Positions 3,370-63,209 of a stretch of 64,000 bases of DNA are shown one piece after another. The stretch lies in contig CAVPNL010000006.1 in assembly GCA_963706575.1 (NCBI GenBank), positions 480,001-544,000 of the forward strand, given 5' to 3'. Positions within the stretch are counted from its first letter, which is position 1, and the number at the start of each line of letters is the position of its first letter. A program made the position numbers and the translations under genes. The notes under the pieces are model-generated. The model ran no database searches, was not told the DNA's origin, and was given only the letters and a program-made list of their open reading frames with translations. Source of the DNA: an uncultured delta proteobacterium. GTDB lineage: Bacteria > Desulfobacterota > Desulfobacteria > Desulfobacterales > JAHEIW01.

Positions 3370-4967
3370 GTATTAAAGACTTACCGTGGCAGGTTCTATG
3401 GGATAAAGAAAAATGTTCCCTATGCGGCAAATGCACGGCAATATGCCCGGTAAATGCCATTGAACTGGGGGTATTTCGCAAGCGGTTGCTCGAACCCCCG
3501 ACGGATCTGGCGCAGGCTCCGGCCATGGCATATAAAAGTTATTACGGCATCCGCCAAAAAACAGACCCGGCTTACCGCTGTATCGGCTGTGCCATGTGCA
3601 CCATGGTTTGCCCCAATGACTGCATTGTTCCCTGCCGAAGTGATGAAGCCGATAAACTCAAATTTCACGTTGACCAGGGCGGCCAGCCCCGCCGACGGGG
3701 CGGACGGCGCAATGTGCCCGGTGGTATTCTCGATCGCCTGAAATTCATCCGGATCTCGATGTTAACGGACCCGGCCCTGGATGCCGGCCGCCATGAGTTC
3801 GAACTGCGCACTTTGCTGGGACGCGTTTTGCCGCCTGAAGACAATCTAAAATTTTTAAGCCTCAACGGCTGGATTCCACCGGTTCGCGAAATCTATCCGT
3901 TGATCATCGGTGCCATGTCTTTCGGGGCCCTGTCCCCCAACATGTGGGAAGGATTGCAGATGGGTGTGGCCTATTTAAATGAAGAACTGGGTATGCCGGT
4001 ACGGATCTGTACCGGTGAGGGCGGATGCCCGCCGCGGCTGTTGCGGTCGCGGTTTTTAAAATATGTCATCCTGCAGATCGCCAGCGGCTATTTTGGCTGG
4101 GATGAGATTATTCACGCCATCCCGCACATGAAAGAAGACCCCTGTGCCATCGAGATCAAGTATGGGCAGGGTGCCAAACCCGGAGACGGCGGACTGCTGA
4201 TGTGGTACAAAGTCAATAAGCTGATTGCCGCCATCCGGGGCGTGCCCACCGGCATCAACCTGCCGAGTCCGCCCACCCACCAGACCAAGTATTCGATTGA
4301 AGAATCGGTCGCCAAGATGATCCAGTCGATGTATATGGCCTGGGGCTTCCGGGTGCCGGTATATCCGAAAATATCCGGTACCTCGACGGCCATGGCGGTT
4401 TTAAATAATCTGACCCGCAATCCCTATGCCGCCGGGCTGGCAATTGACGGTGAGGACGGCGGCACGGGTGCCGCCTATAATGTTTCCATGAACCACATGG
4501 GGCATCCCATCGCCAGCAATATTCGCGATGGATACCTGACCCTGGTGCAGCTGGGCATGCAAAACCAGCTGCCGTTGTTTGCCGGTGGCGGTGTGGGCAA
4601 AAACGGGAACCTGGCGGCCAATGCCGCCGCGCTTTACATGCTGGGAGCCAGCGGAGTGCAGATCGGCAAGTATGTCATGCAGGCCGCTGCCGGATGTCTG
4701 GGTTCTGAATCCGATCGCTGCAATATTTGCAACATCGGATTGTGTCCCAAAGGAATTACCTCCCAGGATCCGCGTCTGTATCGGCGGCTTGATGCCGAAA
4801 AAGTGGCTCAGCGGGTGGTCGATCTTTATCTAAGCTTTGACACTGAATTGAAAAAAATCGTGGCGCCGCTGGGGCGATCCACCTCATTGCCCATTGGCAT
4901 GTCCGACGCGCTAGGCATCGATGATCCCGCTGTGGCGGAACGGTTGAAGATTAAGTACGTTGTTTAA
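3333..4967 (+). CDS. Glutamate synthase FMN-binding subunit with N-terminal 2[4Fe-4S] ferredoxin
   Basis: Two CxxCxxCxxxCP motifs, AMSFGALS, TGEGG, EIKYGQGAKPGDGG, DGEDGGTGAA, C-terminal Cys cluster. Confidence 0.9.
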   Translation: MEPERPITPSTLSIKDLPWQVLWDKEKCSLCGKCTAICPVNAIELGVFRKRLLEPPTDLAQAPAMAYKSYYGIRQKTDPAYRCIGCAMCTMVCPNDCIVPCRSDEADKLKFHVDQGGQPRRRGGRRNVPGGILDRLKFIRISMLTDPALDAGRHEFELRTLLGRVLPPEDNLKFLSLNGWIPPVREIYPLIIGAMSFGALSPNMWEGLQMGVAYLNEELGMPVRICTGEGGCPPRLLRSRFLKYVILQIASGYFGWDEIIHAIPHMKEDPCAIEIKYGQGAKPGDGGLLMWYKVNKLIAAIRGVPTGINLPSPPTHQTKYSIEESVAKMIQSMYMAWGFRVPVYPKISGTSTAMAVLNNLTRNPYAAGLAIDGEDGGTGAAYNVSMNHMGHPIASNIRDGYLTLVQLGMQNQLPLFAGGGVGKNGNLAANAAALYMLGASGVQIGKYVMQAAAGCLGSESDRCNICNIGLCPKGITSQDPRLYRRLDAEKVAQRVVDLYLSFDTELKKIVAPLGRSTSLPIGMSDALGIDDPAVAERLKIKYVV

Positions 4968-5041
4968 TTCGTTTAATTTGTTTGATTGGTTCCATTGGTT
5001 AACATCTGAACTTTGAATCGTCTTTAAACCAATCAAACCAA
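4961..5041. repeat. Inverted tandem-repeat element, 9-bp unit (family A, GGTTxxATT / AACCAAT)
   Basis: tgtttaatt-cgtttaatt-tgtttgatt-ggttccatt-ggtt ... aaaccaatc-aaaccaa; the first unit contains the host TAA stop. Confidence 0.75.
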
Positions 5042-5145
5042 AGTGAGCTAAAGTGACTAAAATGAACTAAAGTGAGCTAAAGTTAAAATCGGATTTTATC
5101 CTTTTAAAATTTTAGGCACTTTAGTCACTTCCAACTTTCGTCACT
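5040..5145. repeat. Inverted tandem-repeat element, 9/10-bp unit (family B, AAAGTGnCT / TTTAGnCAC)
   Basis: aaagtgagct-aaagtgact-aaaatgaact-aaagtgagct-aaagtt ... ttttaggcac-tttagtcac-ttccaactttcgtcact. Confidence 0.85.
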
Positions 5146-5168
5146 ATTCTATAGTTTGGAGACCCTAA

Positions 5169-7517: not shown

Positions 7518-7578
7518 GCAATCGGGAGCTGACACGGGAATTTTGAAGATGGATAACGTTTAGGAGATGGGATAGCGC

Positions 7579-7690
7579 ATTGGTTTTAGAATTGGTTAAA
7601 TAGGTCTTTACGTCTAAGCGCCGTGCACTATGCCTCTACATTTTTACCAAAATTGAACCAATCAAACAAATAAAACCAATAAAACAAAAT
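7579..7690. repeat. Degenerate family A inverted tandem-repeat element upstream of carA
   Basis: attggtttt..aattggtt ... gaaccaatc-aaacaaat-aaaaccaat-aaaacaaaat. Confidence 0.6.
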
Positions 7691-7713
7691 CGATTTTAAG
7701 ATACAGACGACTT

Positions 7714-8847
7714 ATGGACGCATTACTCGCATTAGAAGACGGCCGCACCTTTGCCTGCCGATCCTTTACCGGGCCGGGGGAAGCAACGGGTGAGGTGGTA
7801 TTTAACACCGGTATGACCGGATACCAGGAGGTGCTTACCGACCCGTCTTACAGCGGACAAATGGTGGTCATGACCTATCCGCTGATTGGAAACTACGGCG
7901 TCAATCCTGAGGACATTGAGTCCGGCCGCATTCAGGTCGCGGCCTTTATCATTAAAGAGTATCAGGCCTATCCCAGTAATTTCCGCTCGACGGCAACCCT
8001 GGCCGATTACCTGACAGACCATGGCATACTGGGTGTTGAACACCTGGATACCCGGGCCATCACGCGGCATATCCGAAATGCCGGTGCCATGCGGGCGATT
8101 ATTTCTACTGACGACCTAACGCCGGCTTCCCTGGTGCAAAGAGCCAACGAAATCCCCAAAATGGCGGGTTTAAATCTGGCTAAGGTGGTGACGACCCCGG
8201 AGCCTTTTTACTGGGAGAATGGTAAACCGGAAATTATTAATCCCGACAGCCGCCCACTGGACAAAACGATCTGGCGACATCGTGGCCGAAAGCGCTCGGT
8301 GATCGCATTTGATTTTGGCATCAAATTTAACATACTGAGACAACTGGAAAAGGTCGGTTTTGAGCTGGTGGTGGTTCCGTCTGCCACAACGGCTGACACC
8401 ATTGAAGCCATGGCACCGGACGGTATTTTTCTTTCAAACGGTCCGGGTGATCCTGAGCCGGTTACCGATGCCATCGAAACCATTCAAGCGCTATTGGACT
8501 ACCGCCCTATTTTCGGTATTTGTCTCGGGCACCAGCTCCTCGGGCTGGCGTTGGGTGCCAAAACTTTTAAGTTGAAATTCGGCCATCGGGGTGCTAATCA
8601 ACCGGTCAAAAATTTTCGATCCGGGAAGGTCGAAATTACCTCCCAAAACCATGGATTTGCCGTTGATACGGAATCTCTCCAGGGAAATGACGTTGAAATT
8701 ACCCACATAAACCTAAATGACAATACCCTGGAGGGCTTCCGGCACCGCAAATACCCGTTATTTTCGGTGCAATACCATCCTGAAGCATCTCCGGGTCCGC
8801 ACGATGCACGTTATCTCTTTGATGAGTTTAAAGAATTGATGCGATAA
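7714..8847 (+). CDS. carA: Carbamoyl-phosphate synthase small subunit
   Basis: GEVVFNTGMTGYQEVLTDPSY, SNGPGDP, GICLGHQ, SVQYHPEASPGPHD. Confidence 0.98.
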   Translation: MDALLALEDGRTFACRSFTGPGEATGEVVFNTGMTGYQEVLTDPSYSGQMVVMTYPLIGNYGVNPEDIESGRIQVAAFIIKEYQAYPSNFRSTATLADYLTDHGILGVEHLDTRAITRHIRNAGAMRAIISTDDLTPASLVQRANEIPKMAGLNLAKVVTTPEPFYWENGKPEIINPDSRPLDKTIWRHRGRKRSVIAFDFGIKFNILRQLEKVGFELVVVPSATTADTIEAMAPDGIFLSNGPGDPEPVTDAIETIQALLDYRPIFGICLGHQLLGLALGAKTFKLKFGHRGANQPVKNFRSGKVEITSQNHGFAVDTESLQGNDVEITHINLNDNTLEGFRHRKYPLFSVQYHPEASPGPHDARYLFDEFKELMR

Positions 8848-8849
8848 CG

Positions 8850-9020
8850 CATTAGGGATCGTCTTCGACTACGGCGGAGACTAGAGGAGCAGCCCTCTGG
8901 GCTTTGAGGAGCGTTCCTTCGGAACTTTAGGTTTGAGGCAAGCTCAGGCCTAAAGCGTAGCGCTCCTCAAACGAAGTGATCCTAAAGCGCAGCGCTCCTT
9001 TGGCTGCGAACGAAGTGAGC
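8850..9020. repeat. Hairpin-unit inverted repeat element (family C) between carA and carB
   Basis: Left arm: mini-hairpins (gccc-tct-gggc, gttcc-ttc-ggaac) joined by TTTGAGGAGC-like linkers. Right arm: CCTAAAGCGnAGCGCTCCT units containing GCTCCTCAAA. Confidence 0.75.
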
Positions 9021-9024
9021 ATAT

Positions 9025-12000: not shown

Positions 12001-12285
12001 AATAAAGCCGTAAACAAAGTTTCCGTCGGTCGGCCCCATGTGGTTGATGCCATCAAGAATGCCAAGATCCAGCTGGTGATCAATACGTCTATCGGCGGTG
12101 AAACCCGGCGGGACGGTTACTATATCCGGCGCAATGCCCTGCGGTATAAAGTTCCCTATGCCACCACCACGGCCGGCGGAATGGCGATTTACAAGGCGAT
12201 CGAAGCCCTGCGGCAAAAAAAGACAACGGTCAAAACTTTACAGGAATATAATCGGGAAACTCGAAACTTGAAATTGGGGGCCTAG
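9025..12285 (+). CDS. carB: Carbamoyl-phosphate synthase large subunit
   Basis: [24 protein letters not shown], duplicated ATP-grasp halves, C-terminal MGS domain. Confidence 0.98.
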
Positions 12286-13701
12286 GTGAAAGAAATCTAC
12301 CAAGATGACAAACCCCGTGAAGCCTGCGGGATTTTTGGAATTTACGATCATCCGGAAGCGGCAGGCCTGACCTATTTCGGCCTCTATGCACTGCAGCACC
12401 GCGGCCAGGAAAGCGCCGGCATCGCCGTTGCCAAAGACATGCAGATTGTTGAGCATAAGGGTATGGGGCTGGTATCGGATGTTTTCGACATGGACCATCT
12501 GGCTCAGCTGGACGGCGGCAGCGCCGTGGGTCACGTGCGCTATTCGACAACAGGCAGTTCCATATTGACCAATGCCCAGCCGTTTCGGGTCCGTCATCGC
12601 AAAAAATCTTATGCGGTTGCGCATAACGGTAATATCACCAATGCCCATATTCTCAAAAATGAACTCGAGCAGGCCGGCTCCATTTTTCAGTCCACCATGG
12701 ACAGCGAGATATTTTTGCATCTTTTTGTAAAAAACCTGAAGTTCGGTTTTGAAGAGGCGTTGGTTAAAACCGCGTCCAGGCTGGAAGGGGCGTTTTCTTT
12801 TATTATGTTAACCAGCAAGGGTGAAATTATCGGGATGAAGGACCCGCATGGTTTTCGACCCCTTTGTCTGGGTAAACTCAACGGTAATTATGTGCTGGCG
12901 TCAGAGACCTGCGCCTTTGATCTGGTTGAAGCCGAGTTTATCCGCGAAATCGAACCCGGCGAAATTGTGATTATTGGTGAAGACGGCGTTAATAGCATTC
13001 AAACAACGGCAGCCGCGAACCGGGCATTTTGCATTTTTGAGTTTATTTACTTTGCGCGGCCGGACAGTACCATTTACGGTCAAAATGTCTATCAGACGCG
13101 CAAGGCGCACGGGCGCTGCCTGGCACGGGAGGCGCCGGTGGATGCCGATCTGGTGATGCCGTTTCCCGATTCCGGCACCTATGCCGCCCTGGGCTATCAT
13201 GAAGAATCCGGCATTCCGTTTGAGATGGGAATGATTCGAAATCACTATGTCGGCCGCACCTTTATTCAGCCCACTCAAAGTATGCGGGATTTTGGCGTGC
13301 GGATTAAATTGAATCCGGTCAAAGAGATCCTCAAGGGCAAAGATCTGATTATCATTGAAGACTCCATCATCAGGGGCACCACTATTAGAACCCGGGTGAA
13401 ATCCCTGAGGAAATTAGGCGTGAGGCATGTCCATATGCGGGTTGCCGGTCCACCGCACCGGTTCCCCTGTCACTATGGTATTGATTTCTCTACCCGGGGG
13501 GAGCTGATTGCGGCCCGCAAATCAGTGGATGAACTCAGAGAACACCTGGGACTTGATTCGCTACATTATCTCAGTATTGAAGGATTGTTGAATTCTACCG
13601 GTATCGAAAATCCGCAACGGCATTTTTGCAAAGCCTGCTTTGATGGATGCTATCCGGTCAGTTTTGATGAAATGGTGTCCAAGGAGTGCCTCGAAGAATA
13701 G
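12286..13701 (+). CDS. purF: Amidophosphoribosyltransferase (propeptide / Fe-S type)
   Basis: Propeptide then CGIFG, LQHRGQESAG, GHVRYST, PRPP motif IIEDSIIRGTT, CKACFDG. Confidence 0.97.
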   Translation: MKEIYQDDKPREACGIFGIYDHPEAAGLTYFGLYALQHRGQESAGIAVAKDMQIVEHKGMGLVSDVFDMDHLAQLDGGSAVGHVRYSTTGSSILTNAQPFRVRHRKKSYAVAHNGNITNAHILKNELEQAGSIFQSTMDSEIFLHLFVKNLKFGFEEALVKTASRLEGAFSFIMLTSKGEIIGMKDPHGFRPLCLGKLNGNYVLASETCAFDLVEAEFIREIEPGEIVIIGEDGVNSIQTTAAANRAFCIFEFIYFARPDSTIYGQNVYQTRKAHGRCLAREAPVDADLVMPFPDSGTYAALGYHEESGIPFEMGMIRNHYVGRTFIQPTQSMRDFGVRIKLNPVKEILKGKDLIIIEDSIIRGTTIRTRVKSLRKLGVRHVHMRVAGPPHRFPCHYGIDFSTRGELIAARKSVDELREHLGLDSLHYLSIEGLLNSTGIENPQRHFCKACFDGCYPVSFDEMVSKECLEE

Positions 13702-13764
13702 GTTTCAGGTGTCAGTGTTCAGGTTTCAGCATGATCGATACTGACACCCGACACCTGACACCGA
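13701..13764. repeat. Inverted tandem-repeat element, 7-bp unit (GGTGTCA / CTGACAC)
   Basis: ggtttca-ggtgtca-gtgttca-ggtttca-g, 11-nt spacer, ctgacac-ccgacac-ctgacac-cga; begins on the purF stop codon. Confidence 0.85.
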
Positions 13765-13931
13765 CTATTCAGAGCTTAAATCACCGAAATACTGATGAAT
13801 CCGGGCGGTTATGCAAAAATATATAATATTTACATGTAGTTATAAATTCCTCCTTGCCCTTTTGAGGTGCGCGGTATAAAATAGTAATGTTAAGCTCATT
13901 TTAAGGCGGCCCGGGCCTTGTGGAGGAATTC

Positions 13932-14441: not shown

Positions 14442-15445
14442 CCGTTAGAAAAACCGTCGCCTTTTCAAAGAAATCTGCCAATCTTTTTTTTCACATTCTC
14501 ACCAAATGCAATCTCAGTTGCCGGCACTGTTACATAAATCCAGAACAGCAGGGCGAATCCAACCTACCTTTAAAAACCATCAAAGCCTGGTTGGAGGCCT
14601 TTTCTCAGGATAGCCCCAGTGCAAATGTCATATTCCTGGGCGGTGAACCGACGCTGCATCCGGACCTGAATCACGCCATTAAATATGCTCACCAACTCGG
14701 TTTTCGTTCCATCACCGTTGATACCAACGGCTATCTTTTTCATGATATCCTCTCCAGGGTCAGTCCCCGGGAAGTGGATTTTTTTAGCTTCAGTCTCGAT
14801 GGCGCCACCCGCAAAACCAATGATGGGATTCGCGGGAGCGGATCCTATGATGCCTGCATCAACGGCATTCAGAAGACAGTTGCGAAAGGCTTTGCAGCCA
14901 GTCTGATTTACACCGTTAGCCGGCTAAACATACATGAACTGGAAATGATGCCGTCGCTTTTGAACGATCTGGGTATCGAGCGTTTTTTTATTCAGGTCAT
15001 CGGTCTGCGTGGCAAGGCGGCTGACAGAAGCATGGTGGGCAATCTGCAGGTCACACGATCTAAATGGTTGAAAATCGTTCCGCAGTTGGCGCAAAAGATT
15101 GCCAGACGGGGCATAACTGTGAGCTTTCCAAAAGTATATTTAGACCCTCAAGAAAAATTTGAATGTGCCGGTCTGGTGGCCCGCAATTATTTTATCTTCC
15201 CCAATGGCAGGGTTTATCGGTGCCCGCTTTGCGAAGATCTGCCCATCCACAGCCTGGAGTTTATAGACAATCAGCCGGTAAAGACCGCAAAACTCAACGA
15301 GAGCGATTTGTTCGCTTTGAACATTCCGGAGGGTTGCGTAATGAACAGACTGATTCAGCCCGACAATTTAAGCTACACAGTCGGCGGTGTGCCGGAGTAT
15401 AAAATCGCGTGTTGTCTGCTTAAGGAGGAGATTGCTCAAATATAA
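14438..15445 (+). CDS. Radical SAM protein with Cys-rich (SPASM-like) C-terminus
   Basis: CNLSCRHC, FLGGEP, DTNG, SLDG; C-terminal C..GRVYRCPLC..C..CC. Confidence 0.9.
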   Translation: MTVRKTVAFSKKSANLFFHILTKCNLSCRHCYINPEQQGESNLPLKTIKAWLEAFSQDSPSANVIFLGGEPTLHPDLNHAIKYAHQLGFRSITVDTNGYLFHDILSRVSPREVDFFSFSLDGATRKTNDGIRGSGSYDACINGIQKTVAKGFAASLIYTVSRLNIHELEMMPSLLNDLGIERFFIQVIGLRGKAADRSMVGNLQVTRSKWLKIVPQLAQKIARRGITVSFPKVYLDPQEKFECAGLVARNYFIFPNGRVYRCPLCEDLPIHSLEFIDNQPVKTAKLNESDLFALNIPEGCVMNRLIQPDNLSYTVGGVPEYKIACCLLKEEIAQI

Positions 15446-16045
15446 ATCGTCCTCCTACTCGTCCTCGTCCTCGTACTCGAAAATCTGAAAAATAGCAGGA
15501 TTATTCCGAACTAGGTGAAGCCTGAGGACGGCGACAGGACGATGCATCTGGAATTATAAATCTGTCTCATCCTCGCCCTAAAAAACTAAAAAGGTTAGAG
15601 TAAAATGAAAAAATACAGATTCGATCATGAAAAACTTGATGTCTATCAACTTGAACTTCAGTTCATCGCATGGGTAACCCCATTAATTGAGGAAGTAAAG
15701 GCGTCAGCCGGATCGAAAGTTCGAGAGGTTTGTAACCACTTGGACCGTGCAAGTCTTTCAGCTCTATTCAACACCGCCGAGGGTAATGGAAAAAGGCAGT
15801 CGAAATTGCGGGGTCGGTTTTTTGATGATGCAAGAGGGTCGGCAGCTGAGTGTGCATCCTGCCTGGATGCCTTAGTTGCAAAAGGTGTTTGTTCTGAGGA
15901 TCGTGTTGATAAAGGCCAAGATCTTTTATATCGAATCGTTTCGATGCTAACTAAGTTGGTAAATCGATTTGCACCTGTCACGGAGATACGCGAAGAGTTG
16001 GTTCGATATAATGTCGAGGACGACGACGAGTACGAGTACGATTAG
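15445..16045. mobile_element. Cargo-carrying inverted tandem-repeat element (6-bp unit GT[A/C]CTC) enclosing a four-helix-bundle gene
   Basis: Left arm aatc-gtcctc-ctactc-gtcctc-gtcctc-gtactc-ga (15445-15480); right arm tc-gaggac-gacgac-gagtac-gagtac-gatt (16014-16043) is its reverse complement. Mobility is inferred. Confidence 0.65.
15605..16045 (+). CDS. Four helix bundle protein (23S rRNA-IVP / bAvd-like family)
   Basis: FDHEKLDVYQ..., HLDRASLSALFNTAEGNG, FFDDARGSAAECASCLD, RIVSMLTKL family motifs. Confidence 0.9.
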   Translation: MKKYRFDHEKLDVYQLELQFIAWVTPLIEEVKASAGSKVREVCNHLDRASLSALFNTAEGNGKRQSKLRGRFFDDARGSAAECASCLDALVAKGVCSEDRVDKGQDLLYRIVSMLTKLVNRFAPVTEIREELVRYNVEDDDEYEYD

Positions 16046-16051
16046 ACAATT

Positions 16052-16333
16052 ATGCCCACCATTCGACAAAAAATCATATCGCTTTTAATCGAAGAAGAGA
16101 TGAGTGCCCGGGAGATTTCCGCGGAACTGGGGATATCTGAAAAAGAGGTTTCTGATCATCTAGCGCACATTGCGCGGTCGGTTGCTTCTCAAGATAAGAA
16201 CGTAATGATTACGCCTGCAAACTGCCTGGCTTGTGGATATGTGTTTGAAGACCGCAAACGTTTTACCCGGCCCGGCCGCTGTCCGCAATGCAAAAAATCT
16301 CACATCCAGAGCCCGCGATTCCGCGTTTACTAA
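16052..16333 (+). CDS. Small HTH + zinc-ribbon transcriptional regulator (COG3357-like)
   Basis: TIRQKIISLL..SAREIS..EKEV..HL HTH; CxxCGYVF..RCPQCK. Confidence 0.8.
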   Translation: MPTIRQKIISLLIEEEMSAREISAELGISEKEVSDHLAHIARSVASQDKNVMITPANCLACGYVFEDRKRFTRPGRCPQCKKSHIQSPRFRVY

Positions 16334-16433
16334 ATTCACCACAGACCCACACAGACAGACACAGACAAAATCATTGCCCGCCGGAGGTGGAACCAAAACG
16401 TCCGTGTGAGTCTGTGTGGGTCTGTGGCTAATT
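16333..16433. repeat. Inverted tandem-repeat element, 10-bp unit (CACACAGAC), between convergent genes
   Basis: ccacagac-ccacacagac-agacacagac ... gtccgtgtga-gtctgtgtgg-gtctgtgg; fills the gap between two stop codons. Confidence 0.9.
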
Positions 16434-16807: not shown

Positions 16808-16846
16808 ACAGAACTCTCCTTATTTTTCGATTGAATCATTATGCTT

Positions 16847-17062: not shown

Positions 17063-17066
17063 TGTT

Positions 17067-19859: not shown

Positions 19860-19875
19860 TTGGTGTCACTGTAAG

Positions 19876-19955
19876 GGAATAATGGAATACTGGAATGATG
19901 GAATAACGGTTTTTTAAAGGATATTATCCATTTTAATAATATAATCATCCCAGCC
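19876..19955. repeat. 8-bp tandem arm (GGAATnnT) with decayed inverted partner
   Basis: ggaataat-ggaatact-ggaatgat-ggaataac, then atattatcca..aatcatcc. Confidence 0.65.
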
Positions 19956-21558: not shown

Positions 21559-21617
21559 AGTTAACGCCTCCTTAATTTAATCGATAGTGGATTCGAATTT
21601 TTTAATCACTTCATATG

Positions 21618-21719
21618 AAATGCCTAAAATGATCTAAAATGCCTAAAGTTGAGGAATTCTATCATTTTTAAAAGACAGAGCGTGAGCGACACCATAAGTT
21701 TAGGCATTTTAGCTCATTT
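21618..21719. repeat. Family B inverted tandem-repeat element
   Basis: aaatgcct-aaaatgatct-aaaatgcct-aaagtt ... tttaggcat-tttagctcattt. Confidence 0.85.
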
Positions 21720-21769
21720 GTTTTTTGATTTAAATTTTGAATTGGAAGAGGATACTGCCCTCGGATGCC

Positions 21770-31639: not shown

Positions 31640-31691
31640 TAGCGGGGGGCTTGCTGTTATATTTCACCGCAGAGACGCAGAGATTTTTTTC

Positions 31692-31739: not shown

Positions 31740-32027
31740 TCACGTACCGCAGCAGACGGCGGTGTTCTTGCCTTTGATCCAGGTCTGAATAATATAGGAG
31801 GCGCATCCGACCCCGGGGGCCACAGCGATCGCTTCGGTGGGGCAGTTTTTGGCGCAGGCACCGCACTCCATACACCCGTCTAAATCATGAATCCGGGCTT
31901 TTTTGCGGTGAAGTGAAAAAACCCCATGAGGGCATACGATTTCACACATGCCGCAACCCACGCAGGCCGCTTCGTCCAACCGCAACGTTGTCACACCGGC
32001 AAGGTATCTAAAATTTTCCATTTGCAA
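31740..32027 (-). CDS. hgcB: Mercury methylation ferredoxin HgcB
   Basis: Two CxxCxxCxxxCP motifs including CMECGACAKNCP, GVGCA, C-terminal vicinal CC; directly downstream of hgcA. Confidence 0.93.
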   Translation of the reverse strand: MQMENFRYLAGVTTLRLDEAACVGCGMCEIVCPHGVFSLHRKKARIHDLDGCMECGACAKNCPTEAIAVAPGVGCASYIIQTWIKGKNTAVCCGT

Positions 32028-32090
32028 ATCCTAAACTAAGCAAGCCAAAAAGTCGAATCACAAAAAGCACGAAAAAAACATTGAAGCCGC

Positions 32091-33296
32091 CTAACCTGCA
32101 AAGGCCGATGCGACCCATGCGACCAGCGCCGCTAACAGGGCCGCCGCCTGCAACGGTATGGCTTTACGCATTTCTTTTTCGACCCCCGAAGGTGAAGTAA
32201 AAGGCGTTGATCCGGTAAAATTCATTGCCAGGTAAGAACTGACGGCCGTCGTCCAAAGTATCAGCGCCAAGGCGCCTAAAAGCTGCAAATCGCTTCGAAA
32301 CAGCGCTATAATTCCGGCTGCGCCCAAAACACCGATGATGGCCCCTTTCAGTGCAAAGGATCGTCCCGGTATCCAGGGCAAAAGCGCCGGGGTGGCGACC
32401 GCCCCGGCCAGGATTCCGGCCGCATAGGCGACTGTCAGCATGATCCCTCTGAGCCATGCGGCTGAAAAGGAAAAAACATGGGGTCCGATCCCGGAAATCA
32501 GAAATGCTGCCAGAAGAACCCACAACGACGGCTTCGGCAAGTGGGCACAGTTCCACCGGTGTCAAGGATGACCCGATCGATGGTATTGAAAGTGACCTTG
32601 CGCATGGATGATTCAGATTTAAATCCATTGTTTAAAAAGTTCGGAAGATCTTTGCTGCGCACCGGCCCATAAATTACTTTAAAGCCACTTTGTTTTTTGA
32701 CGTCATGCGCGGCAACGCCAGTGGCCGCCAGTTGCGGCAGAATCAGCCGGCTGTGGGTTACCACTTTTTTAACTTCCGAGCGGTTTACCCGGCGAACGAC
32801 TTCTTCGGTTGAAAAAAAATTTTTTCCGGCCGCACACCACACATTGATACCACGGGTGTCCAGAACCAGGATCCAGGCATTTATGGATGTGAGCGCCTTG
32901 CGCAAATGATCAAATGTCAGTTTATAGTTTGCAGTGACCAGAATCGGTGCCTGGGAATCCGGCGCTCCCGACACAATACAGACCCGGTGCAATTTTATAT
33001 TGGCTACGGTTAATTCCCAGCCGCGCTCTGATCGTACCGGCATGATCCGGCCATTGCAGGGCTGTTTTTACGCGCGGTACCGGCCCGGCCGGCGTCTGGA
33101 CAAACTCCTCTACGAAATCAAGCAAGGCAAAGCCCGGTTTCTCAAACGGGCTGCTTGGCGGTCCCGCGGGCGCCCCACAACACGCCTCATCCTGCTGAGC
33201 GGTCTCGGTTAAGGGCCCGGGAGCGATGCTGATCCCCATCGGCTGACCGTTCTGCTTTTCACAGCAGTTTGTATTTTGCGGGAATTTTTTCTTCAT
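32091..33296 (-). CDS. hgcA: Mercury methylation corrinoid protein HgcA (frameshifted in this sequence)
   Basis: TANYKLTFD, cap-helix GINVWCAAGK, LILPQLAATGV, TM region ending NFTGSTPFTSPSGVEKEM; frame breaks near 32970 and 32550. Confidence 0.92.
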
Positions 33297-33319
33297 TTCA
33301 TCAATTCGGCATCCAAGTT

Positions 33320-33337
33320 TATCGTAAATATACGATA
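33320..33337. promoter_or_regulatory. Palindromic operator upstream of hgcA
   Basis: TATCGTA-AATA-TACGATA (7-4-7) about 25 nt upstream of the hgcA ATG; TTGACC -35-like box further upstream on the minus strand. Confidence 0.6.
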
Positions 33338-33433
33338 TACAATCTGGCTGCTGGCGGTCAAGTGCAAATCCATGATCCAGGGATAACCATTTGGGATGTG
33401 GCAAACGGTGGGACTGTTTCACGGTCATATCCG

Positions 33434-33661
33434 TTACGAAGACAAAATATTTTTGGTTCGTTGCGCAACCAGTGCACATTCCCTGCTGCGTTTCGCACCT
33501 AAAAACGCGATGGCTAAAACCAATACCGGAATGGCGACAAACAATCCGAGGACCGGGATTATCGTAAAACTGACAATCGTTAGGGCCAAGCCCAGAAAAA
33601 GTAAAAACAGGCCAACAGCAAAATCAGAGAATCTTTCAAAATAACAGCTTATGCGATTCAT
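33434..33661 (-). CDS. Small hypothetical membrane protein (2 TM)
   Basis: MNRISCYFERFSDFAVGLFLL...SRECALV; start uncertain. Confidence 0.6.
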   Translation of the reverse strand: MNRISCYFERFSDFAVGLFLLFLGLALTIVSFTIIPVLGLFVAIPVLVLAIAFLGAKRSRECALVAQRTKNILSS

Positions 33662-33907: not shown

Positions 33908-34065
33908 ACCCCTTGGCCGGTGTAAATTTTAACATGAAAATGCTGCGATTCTTCAATCTTAAGATAAGAATGGAATCGGCGGATTCAAGCGGTCGGATAC
34001 TCTTAGAACCGAGCCGGTTAATCGCTGTTTAAGGCGGGATATTTATCTGTTATATAGATCGTTTC

Positions 34066-34164
34066 GGTTAAATGGTTAAATCGTTGAATGGTCAATTCGT
34101 TAGCGGACATTATTCCTTTTTGACTATTTAACGAATCGACCAATTGACGATTCGACTATTTAAC
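34066..34164. repeat. Inverted tandem-repeat element, 8-bp unit (GGTTAAAT / ATTnGACnA)
   Basis: ggttaaat-ggttaaat-cgttgaat-ggtcaatt-cgtta ... ttgacta-tttaacga-atcgacca-attgacga-ttcgacta-tttaac; contains the glycosyltransferase stop codon. Confidence 0.85.
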
Positions 34165-36992: not shown

Positions 36993-37038
36993 ATCACGCT
37001 GCCTTCAGAACACAAGCTCCGATTTATATTAAAATTTT

Positions 37039-37122
37039 ACCACGAAGTTCACGAAGGCCACGAAGTAAATAATTTAAGAGACGTTTCCTCAGCCTTCGTG
37101 TATCTTCGTGTCCTTCGTGGTT
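37039..37122. repeat. Inverted tandem-repeat element, 9-bp unit (CACGAAG / CTTCGTG)
   Basis: accacgaagtt-cacgaaggc-cacgaag ... cttcgtgtat-cttcgtgtc-cttcgtggt. Confidence 0.9.
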
Positions 37123-37161
37123 AATTTAAGATTCTAGAAAAAACTCGAAAGCGGTTGATTG

Positions 37162-38284: not shown

Positions 38285-38935
38285 ATGTTTTCAATCGAAC
38301 AATTTTATCAGGCATATGAAACCGAAGCGGCTGAGGTCGCAATTAACGGCAAGAAATTTAGTATTCTGCTCCCCAAGTATTTGGACCGGTTTATCAATCC
38401 CAATGATGTGCTCCACGATTTTCCTTTATGGGCCAAGATCTGGAAAGCATCCTGGGTGCTATCCGGCTATCTTGCCGATTTACCGCCGGATGTCAACAAA
38501 CGTCTCTTAGAAATCGGTGGCGGTGTCGGATTTGTGAGCATTGTCGCAGCGACTTTCGGGCACCAAATTACGATGACCGAATATAATCCGGATGCCTTAA
38601 ATTTTGCCCGCGCCAATGCCTGCCTGAATAGTTGCCCGGATTTGCCAATCAAAAAGCTGGACTGGAATCATTCTCGGCTAAAGGATCAATATGACATGAT
38701 TGTGGCTGCTGAAGTTACCTATAAAGAAGAGAATTTTTTTCCTTTGATTCGACTTTTCAAATCGAACTTAAAGCCCGGGGGCGAAATCATAATCGCTTCG
38801 GAGATCAGAGAAAGCGGCAAAGATCTTTTTCGTCTTTTTAAATCCGATTTTGACATCACCGTGGCAAAGAAAACCTTGCGTTCAGAAAGGGTCGCCATAC
38901 CCATTGTTTTATTGAAAATGCGTAAAAAAGATTGA
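38285..38935 (+). CDS. Lysine methyltransferase-like SAM-dependent methyltransferase
   Basis: PLWAKIW..S, LLEIGGGVG, LDW, AAEVTY; start may be 38258 or 38285. Confidence 0.8.
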   Translation: MFSIEQFYQAYETEAAEVAINGKKFSILLPKYLDRFINPNDVLHDFPLWAKIWKASWVLSGYLADLPPDVNKRLLEIGGGVGFVSIVAATFGHQITMTEYNPDALNFARANACLNSCPDLPIKKLDWNHSRLKDQYDMIVAAEVTYKEENFFPLIRLFKSNLKPGGEIIIASEIRESGKDLFRLFKSDFDITVAKKTLRSERVAIPIVLLKMRKKD

Positions 38936-39032
38936 GCCCGCTACTTGTTGAGCCCGATGAAAGCCGAAGAACATTTAATTTTTATACCGTTTAACGGCTA
39001 ACGGGTAACGGGCGCAACAGGCGAACCGAACG
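38932..39032. repeat. Degenerate inverted tandem-repeat element (TTGAGCCCG / AACGGG)
   Basis: ttgagcccg..gttgagcccg ... aacggct-aacgggt-aacgggcgc-aacaggcg; the first unit contains the host TGA. Confidence 0.6.
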
Positions 39033-39210
39033 TCGTTTAATAAAATTGCATTTTGGCTCAAATTTGCCTATATTTAAATATAGAACGCTTCGCTCACCAT
39101 AATGCGGCGATGCATTGTTGGCCCTCCATCACGCAAACACAACTGAGGATCGGGTTGACTTCAGTCAATACGAATTATGTGGGGTAATCATTTGATATTG
39201 GAGCATAGAA

Positions 39211-45531: not shown

Positions 45532-45566
45532 AACCAGGAGCCGGCGACCAGAAGCCAGCCGCCAGA
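45532..45566. repeat. Solo 7-bp tandem arm (RRCCAGN)
   Basis: aaccagg-agccggc-gaccaga-agccagc-cgccaga. Confidence 0.55.
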
Positions 45567-45641
45567 AAAAAAGTCTTGCCCATCGAACCATTTCGCGCCA
45601 ATATATCAGCAACCATATCATTGCTGAACAGGGAAGATCCC

Positions 45642-46803: not shown

Positions 46804-46850
46804 AGACAAGTCCCTAAGTTCCTTTAATCAATCTGATCCGCTATGGCGGA

Positions 46851-49143: not shown

Positions 49144-49158
49144 AGGCAAACACCCGTT

Positions 49159-49332: not shown

Positions 49333-49333
49333 C

Positions 49334-49420
49334 AGTGGCTTCAAAACCCCAACTTTAGTCACTTTAGTTCACTTTAGGCACTTTTAGACCTTGAACCTGA
49401 TCTGAAATTTTGAAACCACT
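49334..49420. repeat. Solo family B arm enclosed in a 13-bp inverted repeat
   Basis: agtggcttcaaaa ... actttagtc-actttagttc-actttaggc-actttt ... ttttgaaaccact. Confidence 0.75.
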
Positions 49421-49477
49421 TCTAAGGATATTTTTGTGCTGGAAGATCTTCTTGAAAGACAGCAAAATGGGAGAGTC

Positions 49478-50284: not shown

Positions 50285-50323
50285 AAAATATATCCCAGTC
50301 TGCCGTTCATTTGGCTGAATGAT

Positions 50324-50437
50324 CGCTTCGCTTGAGGATTCAAGATCTTCCTTGTAGCCTCAAAGACCGCAGGGCTGCTCGTCAAGGCTCGAAGAGCCGC
50401 TCCTAAAGCCCCGCAAATAGCGGGGCGCTCCATAGAC
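50324..50437. repeat. Family C hairpin-unit element downstream of dut
   Basis: Minus strand: ggagc-gccccgc..gcggggc-tttaggagc-ggctc ttc gagcc-ttgacgagca-gccctgcggtc-tttgagg ... cctcaagcgaagcg. Confidence 0.7.
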
Positions 50438-50896: not shown

Positions 50897-50904
50897 TACG
50901 CTGT

Positions 50905-51129
50905 GGTTTTAGGGTTCAGGGTTCAAAGGTTCAGCGTTCAAAGGCTCGGATATTCGGTGCCAGGCAAATATTTGTTGTTTGATTGGTTCGATTGGTTCGA
51001 TTGGTTAAGATACAACCACAACCAATAGAACCAATTCAACCAATGAAACGAATGCAACTAAGTATTAAGCCTGCTATAAACCTGAACCTCTGAACGTTAG
51101 ACCTTTGAACCCTGAACCGCTGAACGCCT
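50905..51129. repeat. Nested inverted tandem-repeat elements (outer GGTTCA/TGAACC, inner family A)
   Basis: Outer left 50905-50950, inner left gattggttc x3 (50976-51006), inner right aaccaat x4 (51020-51060), outer right tgaacc/tgaacg x6 (51079-51129). Confidence 0.9.
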
Positions 51130-51132
51130 GCA

Positions 51133-54478: not shown

Positions 54479-54719
54479 TTTTTCTCCTAAAATGCTGCAA
54501 CGCCCAATCCGTTTTCATCTATGATGATGTCCGCATTTCAAAGCGGCGATCATGGAAAGGCCAGGCGCTAAATTTGTATGTCTATCAAAACCCGAAGAGG
54601 ATCGGGCTTCGGACAGCGTTTGTTTCATCCGGCATCGCTGTGCCTTTCAGCAGCGCTAAACAATTGCACTGTTGAAACCACTGATGATTGAGGCACAAGG
54701 GGCGAGCCCGTTCGGCAGG

Positions 54720-54989
54720 CTATCGTTTCAACCCTAAGGTGTCAATTATGGCCCGGTAGCGATTGACGTCTTTGTGCTTCACGTAGTTCAGCAGGCGGCG
54801 GCGCCTACCCACGAGCATCAGCAATCCCCTGCGGGAATGATGATCTTTTTGGTGAATCTTTAAATGCTCGGTGAGGGAGGAAATACGATAGGTCAATAGG
54901 CCGACCTGGACTTCGGGCGATCCGGTATCGGTTTCGTGCAGCTTGAATTTGTCAATCAATTTCTTTTTGTCTTCTGTGTCAAAAACCAC
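54720..54989 (-). CDS. rpsO: 30S ribosomal protein S15
   Basis: [19 protein letters not shown]. Confidence 0.98.
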
Positions 54990-55044
54990 TTTTCCAGCCT
55001 CCTCTAAGGGAAATTATGTTTGTGTTATTTTCAGTATCACTTTT

Positions 55045-56133: not shown

Positions 56134-56138
56134 CCGGT

Positions 56139-57110: not shown

Positions 57111-57111
57111 T

Positions 57112-57456
57112 TTAAATTTTGGTTGATTTGATCAACTCGTCAATATGCGCGCCGTATTCCAACGAGTCATCATAAAAAAATTTTATATCCGGCATGTACT
57201 TGAGGTCAATTTCTTGTGCCAGGATCCGTTTAATAAATCCACGGGCACTGTTAAAACCTTTAATGGCCGCATCCTTTTTCTGCTTGCCGCCGGGAGTCGT
57301 AAAGTATATTCGCGCCAGCTTTAAGTCACGCGAAACTTCGACCTCTGTGATGGTGGCCATTTTCAGGCGCGGATCCCCGATATCTCTTTTCAATATTTCG
57401 GATAGGACTTGCTGGATTAAACCGCTGACCCTGTCTGATCGTGCAAATGGAATCAT
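57112..57456 (-). CDS. rbfA: Ribosome-binding factor A
   Basis: RSDRV, DPRL..TITEVEVSRDL, PDIKFFYDDS. Confidence 0.96.
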   Translation of the reverse strand: MIPFARSDRVSGLIQQVLSEILKRDIGDPRLKMATITEVEVSRDLKLARIYFTTPGGKQKKDAAIKGFNSARGFIKRILAQEIDLKYMPDIKFFYDDSLEYGAHIDELIKSTKI

Positions 57457-57740
57457 AAATGAATAATTTCCATCTCCGTATCGATAATTTCTGCAAGGCC
57501 GAGATCTTCGGCCAAATTTACCATCTTATCTATTTTTGAATTGATGATGGCTTGATCATTGCCGACCAGCGAAAAACCGATTTCCGCCCGCTGGTGAACG
57601 TCGTTGGATCCGATTTCCGCCACCGAGGCATTAAAGTTGTTGCGCAGCCGGCTGATAATCGATTTAATAACTTTGCGCTTCCCTTTCAGAGAGCGGCAAT
57701 CATGCAATCTGAAGGTGATGATTCCGATTCCAACTACCAT
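57453..57740 (-). CDS. DUF503 (YlxP) protein
   Basis: SLKGKRKV..NFNASVAE; position between infB and rbfA. Confidence 0.9.
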   Translation of the reverse strand: MVVGIGIITFRLHDCRSLKGKRKVIKSIISRLRNNFNASVAEIGSNDVHQRAEIGFSLVGNDQAIINSKIDKMVNLAEDLGLAEIIDTEMEIIHL

Positions 57741-57741
57741 T

Positions 57742-57915
57742 GTCGCTTCGCTCCCTTCCAGGAGCGCTGTGCTTTAAGAGCGTTTCACTTAAAGAGCGCT
57801 TCGCTTTAGGAAAGGTCCTTTAAATACCTTTAACCTCAAACCCCGGAGGGGTGGTCCTCAAGGCCTGAAAGGCCGCTCTTCGAGGCACCGTCTCAATGAC
57901 GGGGCCGCTCCTTAT
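57742..57915. repeat. Family C hairpin-unit element between infB and DUF503
   Basis: Minus strand: ggagcgg..gaagagc-ggcct ttc aggcc-ttgagg..ccc tcc gggg-tttgagg ... cctaaagcgaagcgctc..cttaaagcacagcgctcct..gagcgaagcgac. Confidence 0.75.
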
Positions 57916-57918
57916 TTT

Positions 57919-60507: not shown

Positions 60508-60570
60508 AATTTTAATTCATGAGCGGCGCGCGACCGCAATTTATCCTTCAGACGATAGCATCGTCTATGA

Positions 60571-62220
60571 TTAATTTTCTTTATCGGTTTCAGCGCTTTC
60601 AGGTTTATTTTCAGATTGTTCAGCGGTCTCAGCCGTATCGCTTTCGGCGCTTTCAGGTTTATCTTCAGATTGTTCAGCGGCCTCAGCCGTATCGCTTTCG
60701 GCGCTTTCAGGTTTATCTTCAGATTGTTCAGCGGCCTCAGCGGTATCGCTTTCAGCTGTTTCAGGTTTATCTTCAGATTGTTCAGCAGCTTCCGCTATAT
60801 CGGTTTCGGCTTTTTGAGGCTCATCGCCATCCACTGAATCGGTTTGATCATTTTGCGACGCCCCATCAGGTGGTGCCGTGTCCTTGTCGCTGTCGGTCTG
60901 TTCCTGTTCACCTTCATTTCCATCGGTTTCGCCCGTGTCGGTCTCTTTGGCCTTCTCTTCTTCGATGTCTTCAGCTTGCTGGGCTTCCAACACGGCGGTT
61001 TCAGCGGCGGCAATCAATTTCTTAGCGGTTTCTTCACCGATCCCTCTGACTTGAATTAAATCCTCTGCAGTCGCATTGCTGACTTCTTCGGCTGAGTAAA
61101 GACCCAATTCATAAAGTGCATCCGCCATACTGATTCCAACACCCGGCAGCGCCACCAATGAATCATATCCGCTTTGCATAGCGATGCTGTATTTGGTTTC
61201 ACTTTTTACATCCAGGTGCCAGCCGGTGAGTTTGGAGGCCAGGCGAACGTTTTGGCCCTTTTTGCCGATGGCGATCGATAAAAATTCATCCGGTACGATG
61301 ACCTCCATGGATTGATTGGCTTCATCGATAATCACCCGCGAAATTTCAGCCGGTGCCAGCGCGTTACACACGAATTTGGCCGGATCAATATGCCATGGTA
61401 TAATATCGATTTTTTCCCCTCTGAGTTCCTGCACAACATTTTGTACGCGGCTACCTTTCATACCCACACAGGCCCCCACGGGATCGATATCGGAATTATT
61501 TGAAGCCACCGCGAATTTGGCCCGGACGCCCGGTTCGCGTGCGGCCCCCATGATGGTTACAATTCCCTCTGTGATCTCGGGGACTTCGGTACGAAAAAGA
61601 TGGATCAAAAAGTTCGGATGGGTCCGTGAGAGAATAATCTGCGGGCCGCGCGATTCATGCAATACGTCCAAAATGTACGCCCGAATCCGATCACCGCGCC
61701 GATAGGTTTCCTTGGGGACCTGTTCGCGAACTGGCACAATCCCTTCGGTGTGGCCCAGATTAACAATGATATCGCTGCGGTCTATGCGCTGCACAATACC
61801 ATTGAGCGTGTCACCTTTGCGATTGATGAAACTGGCATAAACGGCATCTTTTTCAGCATCCTTCATCTTCTGAATAATGACCTGTTTGGCTGATTGAGCC
61901 GCTATGCGGCCGAAGGTGGAGGTGTCCATTTTTGTGCCGAGGCTGTCTCCAATTTCGCAATCCGGGTCCAGTTTGCGTCCTTCTTCGAGGCTGATTTCAA
62001 GCGCCGGTTCGGTCACATTCTCGGTTACATCCTTGAATTGAAAGACTTCAATTTCGCCGGAGGTTTCATTGTATTGGACCTCGATATCCATTTTGGGGCC
62101 GTACTTTTTGCGGGCAGCAGATTTTAGGGCCTCCTCCAAGGCTTTGATCAAGACGTCTCGCTCGATACCTTTATCCCGGCTCACTTGTTCAACAACTCGA
62201 CTGATATCTGAAATTTGCAT
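60571..62220 (-). CDS. nusA: Transcription termination factor NusA with long acidic tail
   Basis: FGRIAAQ, S1 and KH domains, [10 protein letters not shown], HhH, repetitive acidic C-terminus. Confidence 0.97.
60583..60810. repeat. About 3.8 x 60-bp coding tandem repeat in the nusA 3' end
   Basis: The 60-nt lines at 60601, 60661 and 60721 are near-identical; encodes [22 protein letters not shown] 20-aa units. Confidence 0.9.
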
Positions 62221-62756
62221 CAGATTTCTCCGTCCACGTCGACCAACCGCGCTTTGGAAATATTTCCATACGGGATGACGACTGTTTTTTCATTTGATGA
62301 TAATTTTATCTGGTCTGCAGCAACTCCCAAAATAATGCCAGTAAAATTTTTCTGATCATTAATGGGTTGCCATGTTTTTATTTTAGCCCTGCGGCCCTTA
62401 AATCGCTCATAATCTTGCGGCTTGGACAAGGGGCGTTCCGGCCCCGGCGATGTGACCTCCAGATTGTATGGACCGATGTCATCCAGATACACATCCAGCA
62501 GGTCATTCAACTGGCGGCTGACATTCATACAGTCGTCGAGTGCCACGCCTCCGGCTCGATCAATATACAGGCGAAGTATCCTGCCACCGGGCTCGCGTTG
62601 ATATTCAACATGGACCAGCTCCAACCCTTCATTATCGCACAGCGGTTCGGCAAGTGCTTCAACTTGTTTTATAATTTCTTTTTCCTTCTTGGATCCGACT
62701 CGTCTGCTCCGGTTATCCGCAAAGTTGGTCTTGGATTTGCGGCTTTTCGTTTTCAT
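62220..62756 (-). CDS. rimP: Ribosome maturation factor RimP
   Basis: LRLYID..LDDC..VSR, YNLEVTSPG.ERPL. Confidence 0.96.
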   Translation of the reverse strand: MKTKSRKSKTNFADNRSRRVGSKKEKEIIKQVEALAEPLCDNEGLELVHVEYQREPGGRILRLYIDRAGGVALDDCMNVSRQLNDLLDVYLDDIGPYNLEVTSPGPERPLSKPQDYERFKGRRAKIKTWQPINDQKNFTGIILGVAADQIKLSSNEKTVVIPYGNISKARLVDVDGEI

Positions 62757-62779
62757 CCGAACCTTTAATTATCTCCCTT

Positions 62780-62811
62780 AAAAAAAACAAAAAACGGGCT
62801 GACGCCCGTTT
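62780..62811 (-). terminator. Hairpin plus U-tract in the rimP-nusA leader (terminator/attenuator)
   Basis: Minus strand aaacgggc-gtca-gcccgttt followed by a T-run. Confidence 0.7.
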
Positions 62812-62951
62812 CCTCAATTCCAGGTAGATCTTTGACTTTTGTGCGATAAAAGTTATCAGTTCATAACACCGACCATAAGGTAATAGTTAAATCCATCCCA
62901 CAGTCCTTAAAAAGTCCTACCCTAACCAACGAAAAGGAAACGAACCCTAAC

Positions 62952-63027
62952 TGGAGCGGGCAACGAGATTCGAACTCGCGACACCAAGCTTGGGAAGCTT
63001 GTACTCTACCAGCTGAGCTATGCCCGC
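62952..63027 (-). tRNA. tRNA-Gly (CCC)
   Basis: GCGGGCATAGCTCAGCTGGTAGAG..CAAGC-TTCCCAA-GCTTG..GTTCGAATC..GCCCGCTCCA; 76 nt, encoded CCA. Confidence 0.97.
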
Positions 63028-63133
63028 TCTTTAATCTAGATGATTATGACAAAATCAGCCGCTTGTCAATATATTTCAATAAATAAAAAAGTGCCTTATT
63101 TGTGGAGCCGGGCTATTTTGAAGTCCATTTTTT

Positions 63134-63209
63134 CACCACGAAGGCCACCAAGCTCACAAAGGATCAAAAAGTCGAAGCTGAGATTTTTTACTTTGTGTTC
63201 TTCGTGGTT
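63134..63209. repeat. Decayed CACGAAG-family inverted tandem-repeat element
   Basis: caccacgaaggc-caccaagct-cacaaag ... ctttgtgtt-cttcgtggt. Confidence 0.75.

Follow-up and report, generated by a model that had tools for sequence, protein, structure and literature searches.

We analysed a stretch of 64,000 nucleotides (nt) from the genome of an uncultured delta proteobacterium (the window; G000:C6:480001-544000, from the 5.67 Mb, 25-contig genome G000), in which intergenic elements made of a short tandemly repeated word, a spacer and the same array in inverted orientation recur many times. These elements are, very probably, complete and gene-less copies of small cassettes, in which a tandem-word arm, a gene for a four-helix-bundle or GxxExxY protein and an inverted arm make up what appears to be a promoterless unit placed at gene junctions. 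The sole complete cassette of the window (15445..16043, plus strand) has a left arm of the 6-mer TCGTCC at the stop codon of a radical SAM gene, followed by its cargo, a four-helix-bundle gene encoding 146 amino acids (aa; 15605..16045, plus strand; TIGR02436, E 6e-13; 2GSC / XCC0516, E 0.002) whose 3' end enters the inverted right arm.

An earlier reading of the window, made from the sequence only, had claimed more than 15 such sites. Short-period arrays are indeed present at all 17 positions that it named; the paired architecture holds at 13 of them (4961, 5040, 7579, 13701, 15445, 16333, 21618, 34066, 37039, 38932, 50905, 50976 and 63134), and the other four have a single arm, left at 19876 and 31663 and right at 45532 and 49351. 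We found four additional sites, a short one at 12256-12300 and three 16-period GAGCG-type pairs, matched up by eye, at 8849-9020, 50285-50437 and 57741-57918. That these are not CRISPR arrays was a correct call, as the units are 6-10 nt long (16 in one family) and run head to tail in inverted arms, as opposed to repeats of 23-47 nt.

A chance origin of the elements is excluded. Among gaps of at least 40 nt between called genes, 309 of 3327 carry an element, compared with 1, 2, 1, 2 and 2 in five dinucleotide shuffles. Our first detector returned 331 reverse-complement pairs versus 28-31 with complement-only or reverse-only pairing, and a family-aware count, in which some sites are entered twice under overlapping word patterns, gave 435 pairs and 361 lone arms, the reversed or complemented genomes yielding 33-37 pairs and 41 lone arms. 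Of 406 merged elements, 357 have their arms in non-coding DNA, which makes up 23% of the genome. About 20 words occur in the genome, most of which cannot form quadruplexes, and the polarity of every abundant word is constant, with the word first and its reverse complement second (ATTGGT 48 vs 2, CTAAAA 45 vs 0, CACGAA 40 vs 1, GGTTCA 26 vs 1). Near-identical duplicated segments (G000:C20:5958 and C6:747710; C16/C17/C21/C22/C24), which are consistent with the 6% contamination figure of the genome, inflate the element counts slightly. The gene calls (4430 genes) miss some short genes, including 15605-16045, so that some orientation classes are wrong.

Genome G000 has 12 cargo genes, eight for four-helix-bundle (TIGR02436) and four for GxxExxY (TIGR04256) proteins. 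Word arms are visible by eye at 11 of them, one of which has a weak right arm only, and apart from one duplicated locus the word varies from gene to gene. Empty copies outnumber filled ones by about 30 to 1. No transposase was found in the filled forms, which encode a TIGR02436 or TIGR04256 protein instead (other cargo types were surveyed non-exhaustively), and DUF559-type nucleases, which had been listed as candidate cargo, were not found in G000. Within the genus, four-helix genes are present in 21 of 22 genomes and GxxExxY genes in 18, patchily distributed and in some cases with internal stops. From these genomes we recovered 90 four-helix and 30 GxxExxY proteins (most but not all matches were fetched). 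Paired arms were detected automatically at 50 of the 90 and 18 of the 30 loci, and inspection of 26 loci, mostly detection misses, revealed more word arms, including those of the GGTTAAAT, TTGAGCCCG and GAGCG families; GAGCG-type arms also flank the four-helix genes G000:C8:10986 and L136.

Trees of the two protein sets cluster by arm word. Nine of 28 multi-member clades are found at two to four different sites (site groups were formed by single linkage and are approximate), eight of them keeping the same word, and single sites house different clades; the coupling of word to clade is therefore not just shared descent at one locus. It also extends across phyla. The TCGT word of the window gene flanks 24 of 29 relatives (a loose count) of 55-95% identity in 20 neighbourhood groups, which range from Desulfobacterales to Planctomycetota, Verrucomicrobia, Lentisphaerae and Acidobacteria; the word is kept in five phyla, one Fibrobacterota relative bears a different one, and the closest named relatives are Desulfobacterales metagenome-assembled genomes. 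The suggestion that each word family has its own cognate small protein is thus borne out in the genus trees and beyond. For the ATTGGTT word the cognate gene is absent from the genus sample, and a four-helix gene is enclosed in 6 of 80 metagenome loci. The D and ELK columns (catalytic-type D, ExK) are at least 90% conserved in the 30 aligned GxxExxY proteins; judged by these PD-(D/E)xK-like residues, GxxExxY proteins could cut. The four-helix protein has no evident catalytic motif. At five Kiritimatiellales/Pontiella-type loci (L190, L193, L194, L198 and L214) the four-helix gene sits between two whole mini-hairpins, the second at the gene's own stop codon. A further four-helix clade (G000:C4:622300 and 16 orthologues), fixed beside a comEA-like gene across the genus and lacking paired arms, has possibly been domesticated.

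Orthologous junctions turn over, being empty, filled or occupied by other families in relatives, the presence/absence polymorphism that the sequence-only reading had implied. At five junctions the relatives carry other families or are empty but for a short gap (14 nt in L007, 7 nt in L017, 27 nt in L027, 36 nt in L034 and an 8-nt overlap in L019). At the 15445 junction L011 has the same cassette, and the other 10 relatives have three other families or a 7-nt gap. Up to four or five unrelated families, or none, are seen at one junction within one order; the rpsO-pnp gap is conserved and arm-free in 18 relatives, and nusA-infB is also arm-free. Elements are found both stacked and nested. Comparison of G000 with G005 covered 171 orthologous gaps, of which 15 contain an element in at least one of the two genomes; 11 of the 15 differ in length by more than 40 nt. 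Length differences are also seen in 56 of the 156 gaps without elements. One CTAAA spacer has opposite orientations in the two genomes, which are too diverged for exact element ends to be read from their comparison.

Cargo loss by internal deletion can be seen directly at the carB-purF junction. L005 and L008 have a full four-helix cassette with GAAACTT arms, and L007 keeps both ends of the cargo gene with the middle gone. In L010, L011, L012, L014, L015 and L016 only the 3' end of the cargo is left, giving an AGGAG motif before purF, and the right arm is read as the first PurF codons. A TCGT element lies within the cargo remnant of L003, L006 and L009. In the window itself a GAAACTT cassette scar (12256..12300, plus strand) is identified from its sequence and translation, the full cassettes in L005/L008 and the graded deletions in the genus: the left arm forms the last carB codons, and the ribosome-binding region and first five codons of the cargo are fused to purF. 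Such elements can therefore permanently alter essential genes. The earlier view of empty copies as scars of cargo loss is supported by this deletion series, though not for empty copies in general, since a convincing cargo sequence is present in only two or three of 307 spacers; the search gave 17 weak matches, mostly to arm-like ends. Together with the common CTAAA spacer described below, this led us to reject independent cargo loss as the source of most empty copies.

Empty copies have themselves been amplified. In CTAAA, the biggest family, 92 of 98 spacers share one core, indicating that the family spread when it was already empty. Genome-wide, the spacers are thus not always unique, as had been thought from the window, same-family matches being found for these 92 and for 29 of 37 GGTTC spacers; nor are near-identical copies lacking, as 126 pairs involving 92 elements, some of them segmental duplicates, are at least 88% alike over the whole element. 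Unit number and order differ among copies, with unit-level shuffling between them. Part of the CTAAA family is carried by a TA-flanked miniature inverted-repeat transposable element (MITE). This MITE family has about 110 end pairs in G000, mostly 130-300 nt long and with TA on both sides in 55 (for example C5:291570-291900, C18:179123 and C5:138178), and some of its copies contain a CTAAA element and share 97-99% identity between separate sites. Fourteen CTAAA copies are enclosed by it and 20 adjoin it (34/105); overall, 39 of 341 elements lie near its ends. No autonomous transposase was present between the ends of 13 long pairs. The elements themselves show no target duplication, as had been noted: direct repeats in their own flanks are at the cross-pair level in five families, a test that a duplication of 1-2 nt could escape, element ends being word-defined. 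A second MITE-like family, beginning AAACTGTT, is found at the infB stop codon (infB-DUF503 gap) in L027, L030, L031, L033 and L037, with one pair in G000.

We next consider where the elements lie and how they fold. Among MITE-free elements, 39 of 162 are at most 10 nt from a stop codon (14.9 expected), and in convergent gaps 14 of 43 are near one (6.6 expected). The stop codon is within the stem in 42 of 236 elements, and divergent gaps are depleted. At 42 of 44 scored sites the cargo gene and its upstream neighbour share one direction (background 0.667, p 5e-6). A gene without a promoter that depends on read-through should behave in this way, and we infer that host read-through is the source of cargo expression. 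When 10 window elements were folded as RNA, eight gave z <= -2.3, the exceptions being those at 4962 (z -1.4) and 7575 (z -0.6); the structures are helices of 6-9 bp interrupted by small internal loops. Where a family is homogeneous, the two arms of one element pair less well than arms taken from separate copies (GGAAT 2/22, p 0.0004; CTAAA p 0.002), and arm-to-arm homogenisation was rejected, since own arms are not better matched there; CAGAG, CACGA, GATTG and GTTAT gave the reverse, a result that their mixed words confound. Facing linkers also match less often than in shuffles (ATTGGT 5/119 vs 13%, p 0.0005; CACGAAG 0/32 vs 11%, p 0.026; CTAAA 10-mer 1/17 vs 28%, p 0.025). This would mean either that perfect palindromes are purged or that periodic loops are required. 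The latter fits the S23-like Avd protein, which, in the available text of its report, binds a stem-loop as a pentamer with flipped-out bases held between protomers (10.1101/2023.10.23.563531).

Mismatches offer a way to tell an RNA stage from a DNA stage. Along the transcript, G-T and A-C mismatches are balanced, without wobble bias (402 vs 409), as they are in 35 filled cassettes (159 vs 158); the corresponding controls gave 11 vs 0 in 42 tRNA stems, which is clear, and 7 vs 1 in 21 terminator hairpins, which is small. CTAAA spacers lie with the transcript in 23 cases and against it in 28, and no replication-strand bias of these spacers is evident. Of the 22 genus genomes, 9 yielded a reverse transcriptase (RT) and 13, two of the five high-quality ones among them, did not. 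The only RT of G000 (C4:301305-302598), which from its N-terminus we take to be group II intron-like, lies far from all cassettes and has no called neighbours within about 5 kb. No RT that could serve as an obligate partner of the cassettes was found.

From these results we infer selfish mobility, recognition of the word by the protein and action in trans on empty copies. The cargo protein would bind the folded, periodically mismatched hairpin of its own word and would help to copy it into further positions close to stop codons, with single-stranded DNA a more probable form than RNA, and empty copies would be moved in trans by the cognate protein. We regard this mechanism, taken as a whole, as evenly balanced between right and wrong. 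Several observations weigh against it. Insertions with clean ends were not found, the closest sampled relative being about 90% identical and its 11 element gaps of different length being ragged, and a search for plasmid or phage relatives of the window gene gave no match. Closeness to stop codons may reflect a survival filter and not targeting, and physical linkage alone can yield coupling of word and clade. No GxxExxY clade was seen at two or more sites in the genus, the largest four-helix clade (17 members) is confined to one site and lacks paired arms, and the four-helix alignment holds few invariant residues. Mismatch over the whole linker reaches p<0.05 in 3 of 11 testable families, of which ATTGGT alone survives correction; the mixed GTGTCA set shows the opposite linker trend, and copies are not independent. 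Finally, in spacer orientation CTAAA elements have more G-T than A-C mismatches (145 vs 100, p 0.005; 98 vs 75 in MITE-free copies), a hint of an RNA stage.

Such a stage is central to one alternative, in which cleavage of the operon transcript releases the hairpin, as with a ribosomal RNA intervening sequence (IVS), an Avd-like pentamer binds it and passes it to a borrowed RT, and insertion of the cDNA follows at gene ends. The homology to S23p/XCC0516 and the analogy to Avd favour this route, RNase III is reported to excise IVS (PMC4990558, as far as its text is available), and the orientation of cargo along transcription, the depletion of divergent gaps, the CTAAA G-T excess and the unit-level shuffling would all fit. 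However, the excess is absent along the host transcript and in filled cassettes, empty CTAAA copies lie in both orientations, RTs were detected in only 9 of 22 genus genomes and the single RT of G000 has no cassette beside it, and GxxExxY cassettes share the same design with no known link to RT. We consider the RNA route unlikely and copying as DNA somewhat more likely.

The elements could instead be host post-transcriptional signals, sites of mRNA processing or stability that are read by the small proteins and kept by selection for regulation. Many of them do lie in housekeeping operons near stop codons and most fold strongly; arms have been absorbed into the coding ends of carB and purF, the cargo 3' end supplies the ribosome-binding motif of purF in several relatives, and a regulatory role is proposed for TAACTGA repeats in the available text of PMC4679880. 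A single junction, however, can be occupied by four or five unrelated families, or by none, in one order, unlike the conserved rpsO-pnp gap, and the lack of strand bias in wobble pairs, the nested and stacked insertions and the patchy cargo genes, some with internal stops, also speak against it, making this account distinctly improbable. Least credible to us is a local origin by replication slippage and template switching, with small genes and MITEs hitchhiking and the proteins uninvolved. It would explain the variable number and order of units, the spacer inverted between G000 and G005, the association of the TA-flanked MITE with a third of CTAAA copies and the absence of target duplication, but not the fixed polarity or the constancy of one word with one protein clade over phyla and 20 neighbourhoods. 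Template switching should moreover leave own arms better paired than those of other copies, the reverse of what we see, and MITE ends are near few elements overall.

The remaining elements of the window can now be described along its length. An ATTGGTT 9-mer element (4962..5045) begins at the upstream gene's stop codon (fold z -1.4), and its right arm is shortened by the next element, a CTAAA(A/G)TG 9/10-mer with both arms (5040..5147; z -4.2), which is missing from the junction in L014, L016 and L007. A degenerate ATTGGTT element (7579..7690; z -0.6) occupies the gltD-carA gap, and a GAGCG-type 16-period element (8849..9020) the carA-carB gap, where relatives show no gap or one of three different families. 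The purF stop codon is the site of a GGTGTCA / TGACACC 7-mer element (13697..13770; z -3.7). The CACAGAC 10-mer element (16333..16433; three units, z -7.5) has the GxxExxY-type design, its cargo link being a match to the wider C(A/G)CAGA GxxExxY group only. A GGAATnnT 8-mer lone left arm (19872..19906) is followed by a CTAAA element (21612..21725; z -4.4) with the common spacer of its family, and by a two-unit CGCAGAG lone left arm (31663..31685); a candidate partner for the latter at 31890-31912 was rejected as probably due to chance, as it falls inside a ferredoxin-like open reading frame (ORF).

The GGTTAAAT 8-mer element (34062..34160; z -4.6) ends at the stop codon of a minus-strand gene and has cognate four-helix genes in L052, L061 and L174. 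Cognate genes are likewise found for the three-unit, GxxExxY-type CACGAAG element (37033..37127; z -6.3; GxxExxY genes L070, L072 and L074), for the degenerate TTGAGCCCG / TAACGGG element (38931..39036; four-helix genes L045 and L046) and for a CTGGC-family lone right arm (7-mer; 45533..45567; four-helix gene L137). Inspected by eye, the DNA next to a lone CTAAA right arm (49352..49384) is similar to the inside of the TA-flanked MITE, with no MITE end found there. A GAGCG-type element (50285..50437) lies in the dut-MBL gap, where relatives have other families or a 36-nt gap. The M16 peptidase-dut gap is filled by a GGTTCA 7/8-mer element (50905..51130), in whose spacer an ATTGGTT element (50974..51062; z -7.7) is nested that is absent from the GGTTCA copies of L026, L033 and L035. 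Another GAGCG-type element (57741..57918) follows the infB stop codon, and the last is a degenerate, three-unit CACGAAG / CACAAAG element (63130..63220; z -2.3).

The window includes the glt-car-purF and rimP-nusA-infB-pnp operons. In an Rfam scan tRNA alone was matched, and no element matches an Rfam family. Sequencing runs that match the window are mostly sediment and estuary metagenomes, none with half of the stretch's words, and their contigs, placed on it at 88% likeness, derive from relatives and paralogous repeats; among these contigs we found junction variants (5038/5041 to 5155; 8847 to 9024) and no clean excision of any window element. Elsewhere in the window, at 31740-33479 (minus strand), an hgcA-like mercury-methylation gene is broken over three frames (cap-helix motif in ORF 32498-33043) and is either a pseudogene or an assembly error; an hgcB-like ferredoxin gene after it (31740-32027) is intact. 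The C-terminus of NusA is lengthened to 549 aa by a 54-bp in-frame tandem repeat (60582-60807; 4.2 copies, 91% matches).

Several known systems share features with these elements. Repetitive extragenic palindromic (REP) sequences and their associated tyrosine transposases (RAYTs) form families paired with a cognate gene, the palindromes following stop codons in both orientations without target duplication. The elements described here are similarly extragenic, downstream of stop codons and rare between divergent genes, whereas their arms are periodic; no GTAG-type tag is visible in aligned copies, and no HUH transposase was tied to the elements, in a survey that included no search aimed at RAYT. 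Bacterial MITEs, in the available text of PMC3184786, are short, gene-less, hairpin-folding sequences with inverted ends and many copies, as is the CTAAA family with its common core. The present elements differ in having no target duplication, ends of tandem words with ragged borders and a filled form that has no transposase gene. An S23-like protein also occurs as Avd in diversity-generating retroelements (10.1101/2023.10.23.563531), and the available part of the myRT preprint mentions GxxExxY once, next to a CRISPR RT. The cassettes, unlike such retroelements, have neither an RT nor a template nor a variable repeat next to them.

Cyanobacterial short tandemly repeated repetitive (STRR) heptamers are likewise intergenic heptamer arrays. 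TAACTGA repeats of Beggiatoaceae, Cyanobacteria and Bacteroidetes are intergenic heptamers of 2-6 units beside start codons, patchy over phyla, with a mechanism of spread that was not evident to the author; they are described as direct repeats and possible regulator sites, and the available text mentions no four-helix, S23 or GxxExxY genes (PMC4679880). Closer still are the Xanthomonas GGGAATC and Nostoc GGGGA(C/T)T repeats (PMC4692102), degenerate tandem units, mostly four, that are intergenic, near stop codons and rare between divergent genes. In Xcc there are 70 inverted GGGAATC pairs with the same polarity as the elements here, and repeat 15, situated 6 nt past bccP, overlaps the beginning of XCC0516, which encodes the four-helix protein of structure 2GSC. 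This link comes from the table of that paper only, which gives no inverted partner for repeat 15 in the part available; the accessible main text does not mention XCC0516, S23 or intervening sequences. The empty form is thus already published for Xanthomonas, as a quadruplex repeat with one word per genome, in contrast to about 20 words here.

What is likely new is the cassette that links word arms with a four-helix or GxxExxY gene, probably a little-described kind of selfish DNA; no description of a word-armed cassette was found in the literature searched, which largely lies outside subscription journals. To our knowledge, proteins of the four-helix-bundle (S23p) and GxxExxY families are abundant and of no known function, and the spread of rRNA IVS is unexplained; the cassette model joins these two families, that spread and the source-less intergenic heptamer repeats. 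The roughly 20 natural word-protein pairs of one genus, together with Xanthomonas GGGAATC and XCC0516, whose structure is solved, are open to direct testing and, if recognition is word-specific, would constitute a set of small orthogonal nucleic-acid binders. More tentatively, and with doubt outweighing confidence, the cassettes could represent a widespread transposase-free mobile class, in which a periodic hairpin is read, each subunit taking one word, by a ring-forming four-helix protein or by a minimal GxxExxY nuclease, with dozens of orthogonal pairs of word and protein. Such a class would target gene ends, remodel the ends of housekeeping proteins and account for the spread of 23S IVS and for the Xanthomonas, cyanobacterial and Beggiatoaceae heptamers.

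The closest counterpart of the filled form is the 23S rRNA IVS with S23p of Coxiella and Leptospira, described in the available text of PMC4990558 as a sporadic, promoterless four-helix gene within complementary stem-forming arms, subject to cargo decay; this gene and the four-helix cargo here belong to one family (TIGR02436). The cassettes differ from it in lying between protein-coding genes and not in an rRNA helix (all eight four-helix genes of G000 are flanked by coding sequence), in having arms of tandem words specific to the protein clade, and in the use of the same design by a second cargo, GxxExxY. The cassette works like an ORF-bearing rRNA IVS that has been moved to mRNA junctions and has given rise to MITE-like derivatives.

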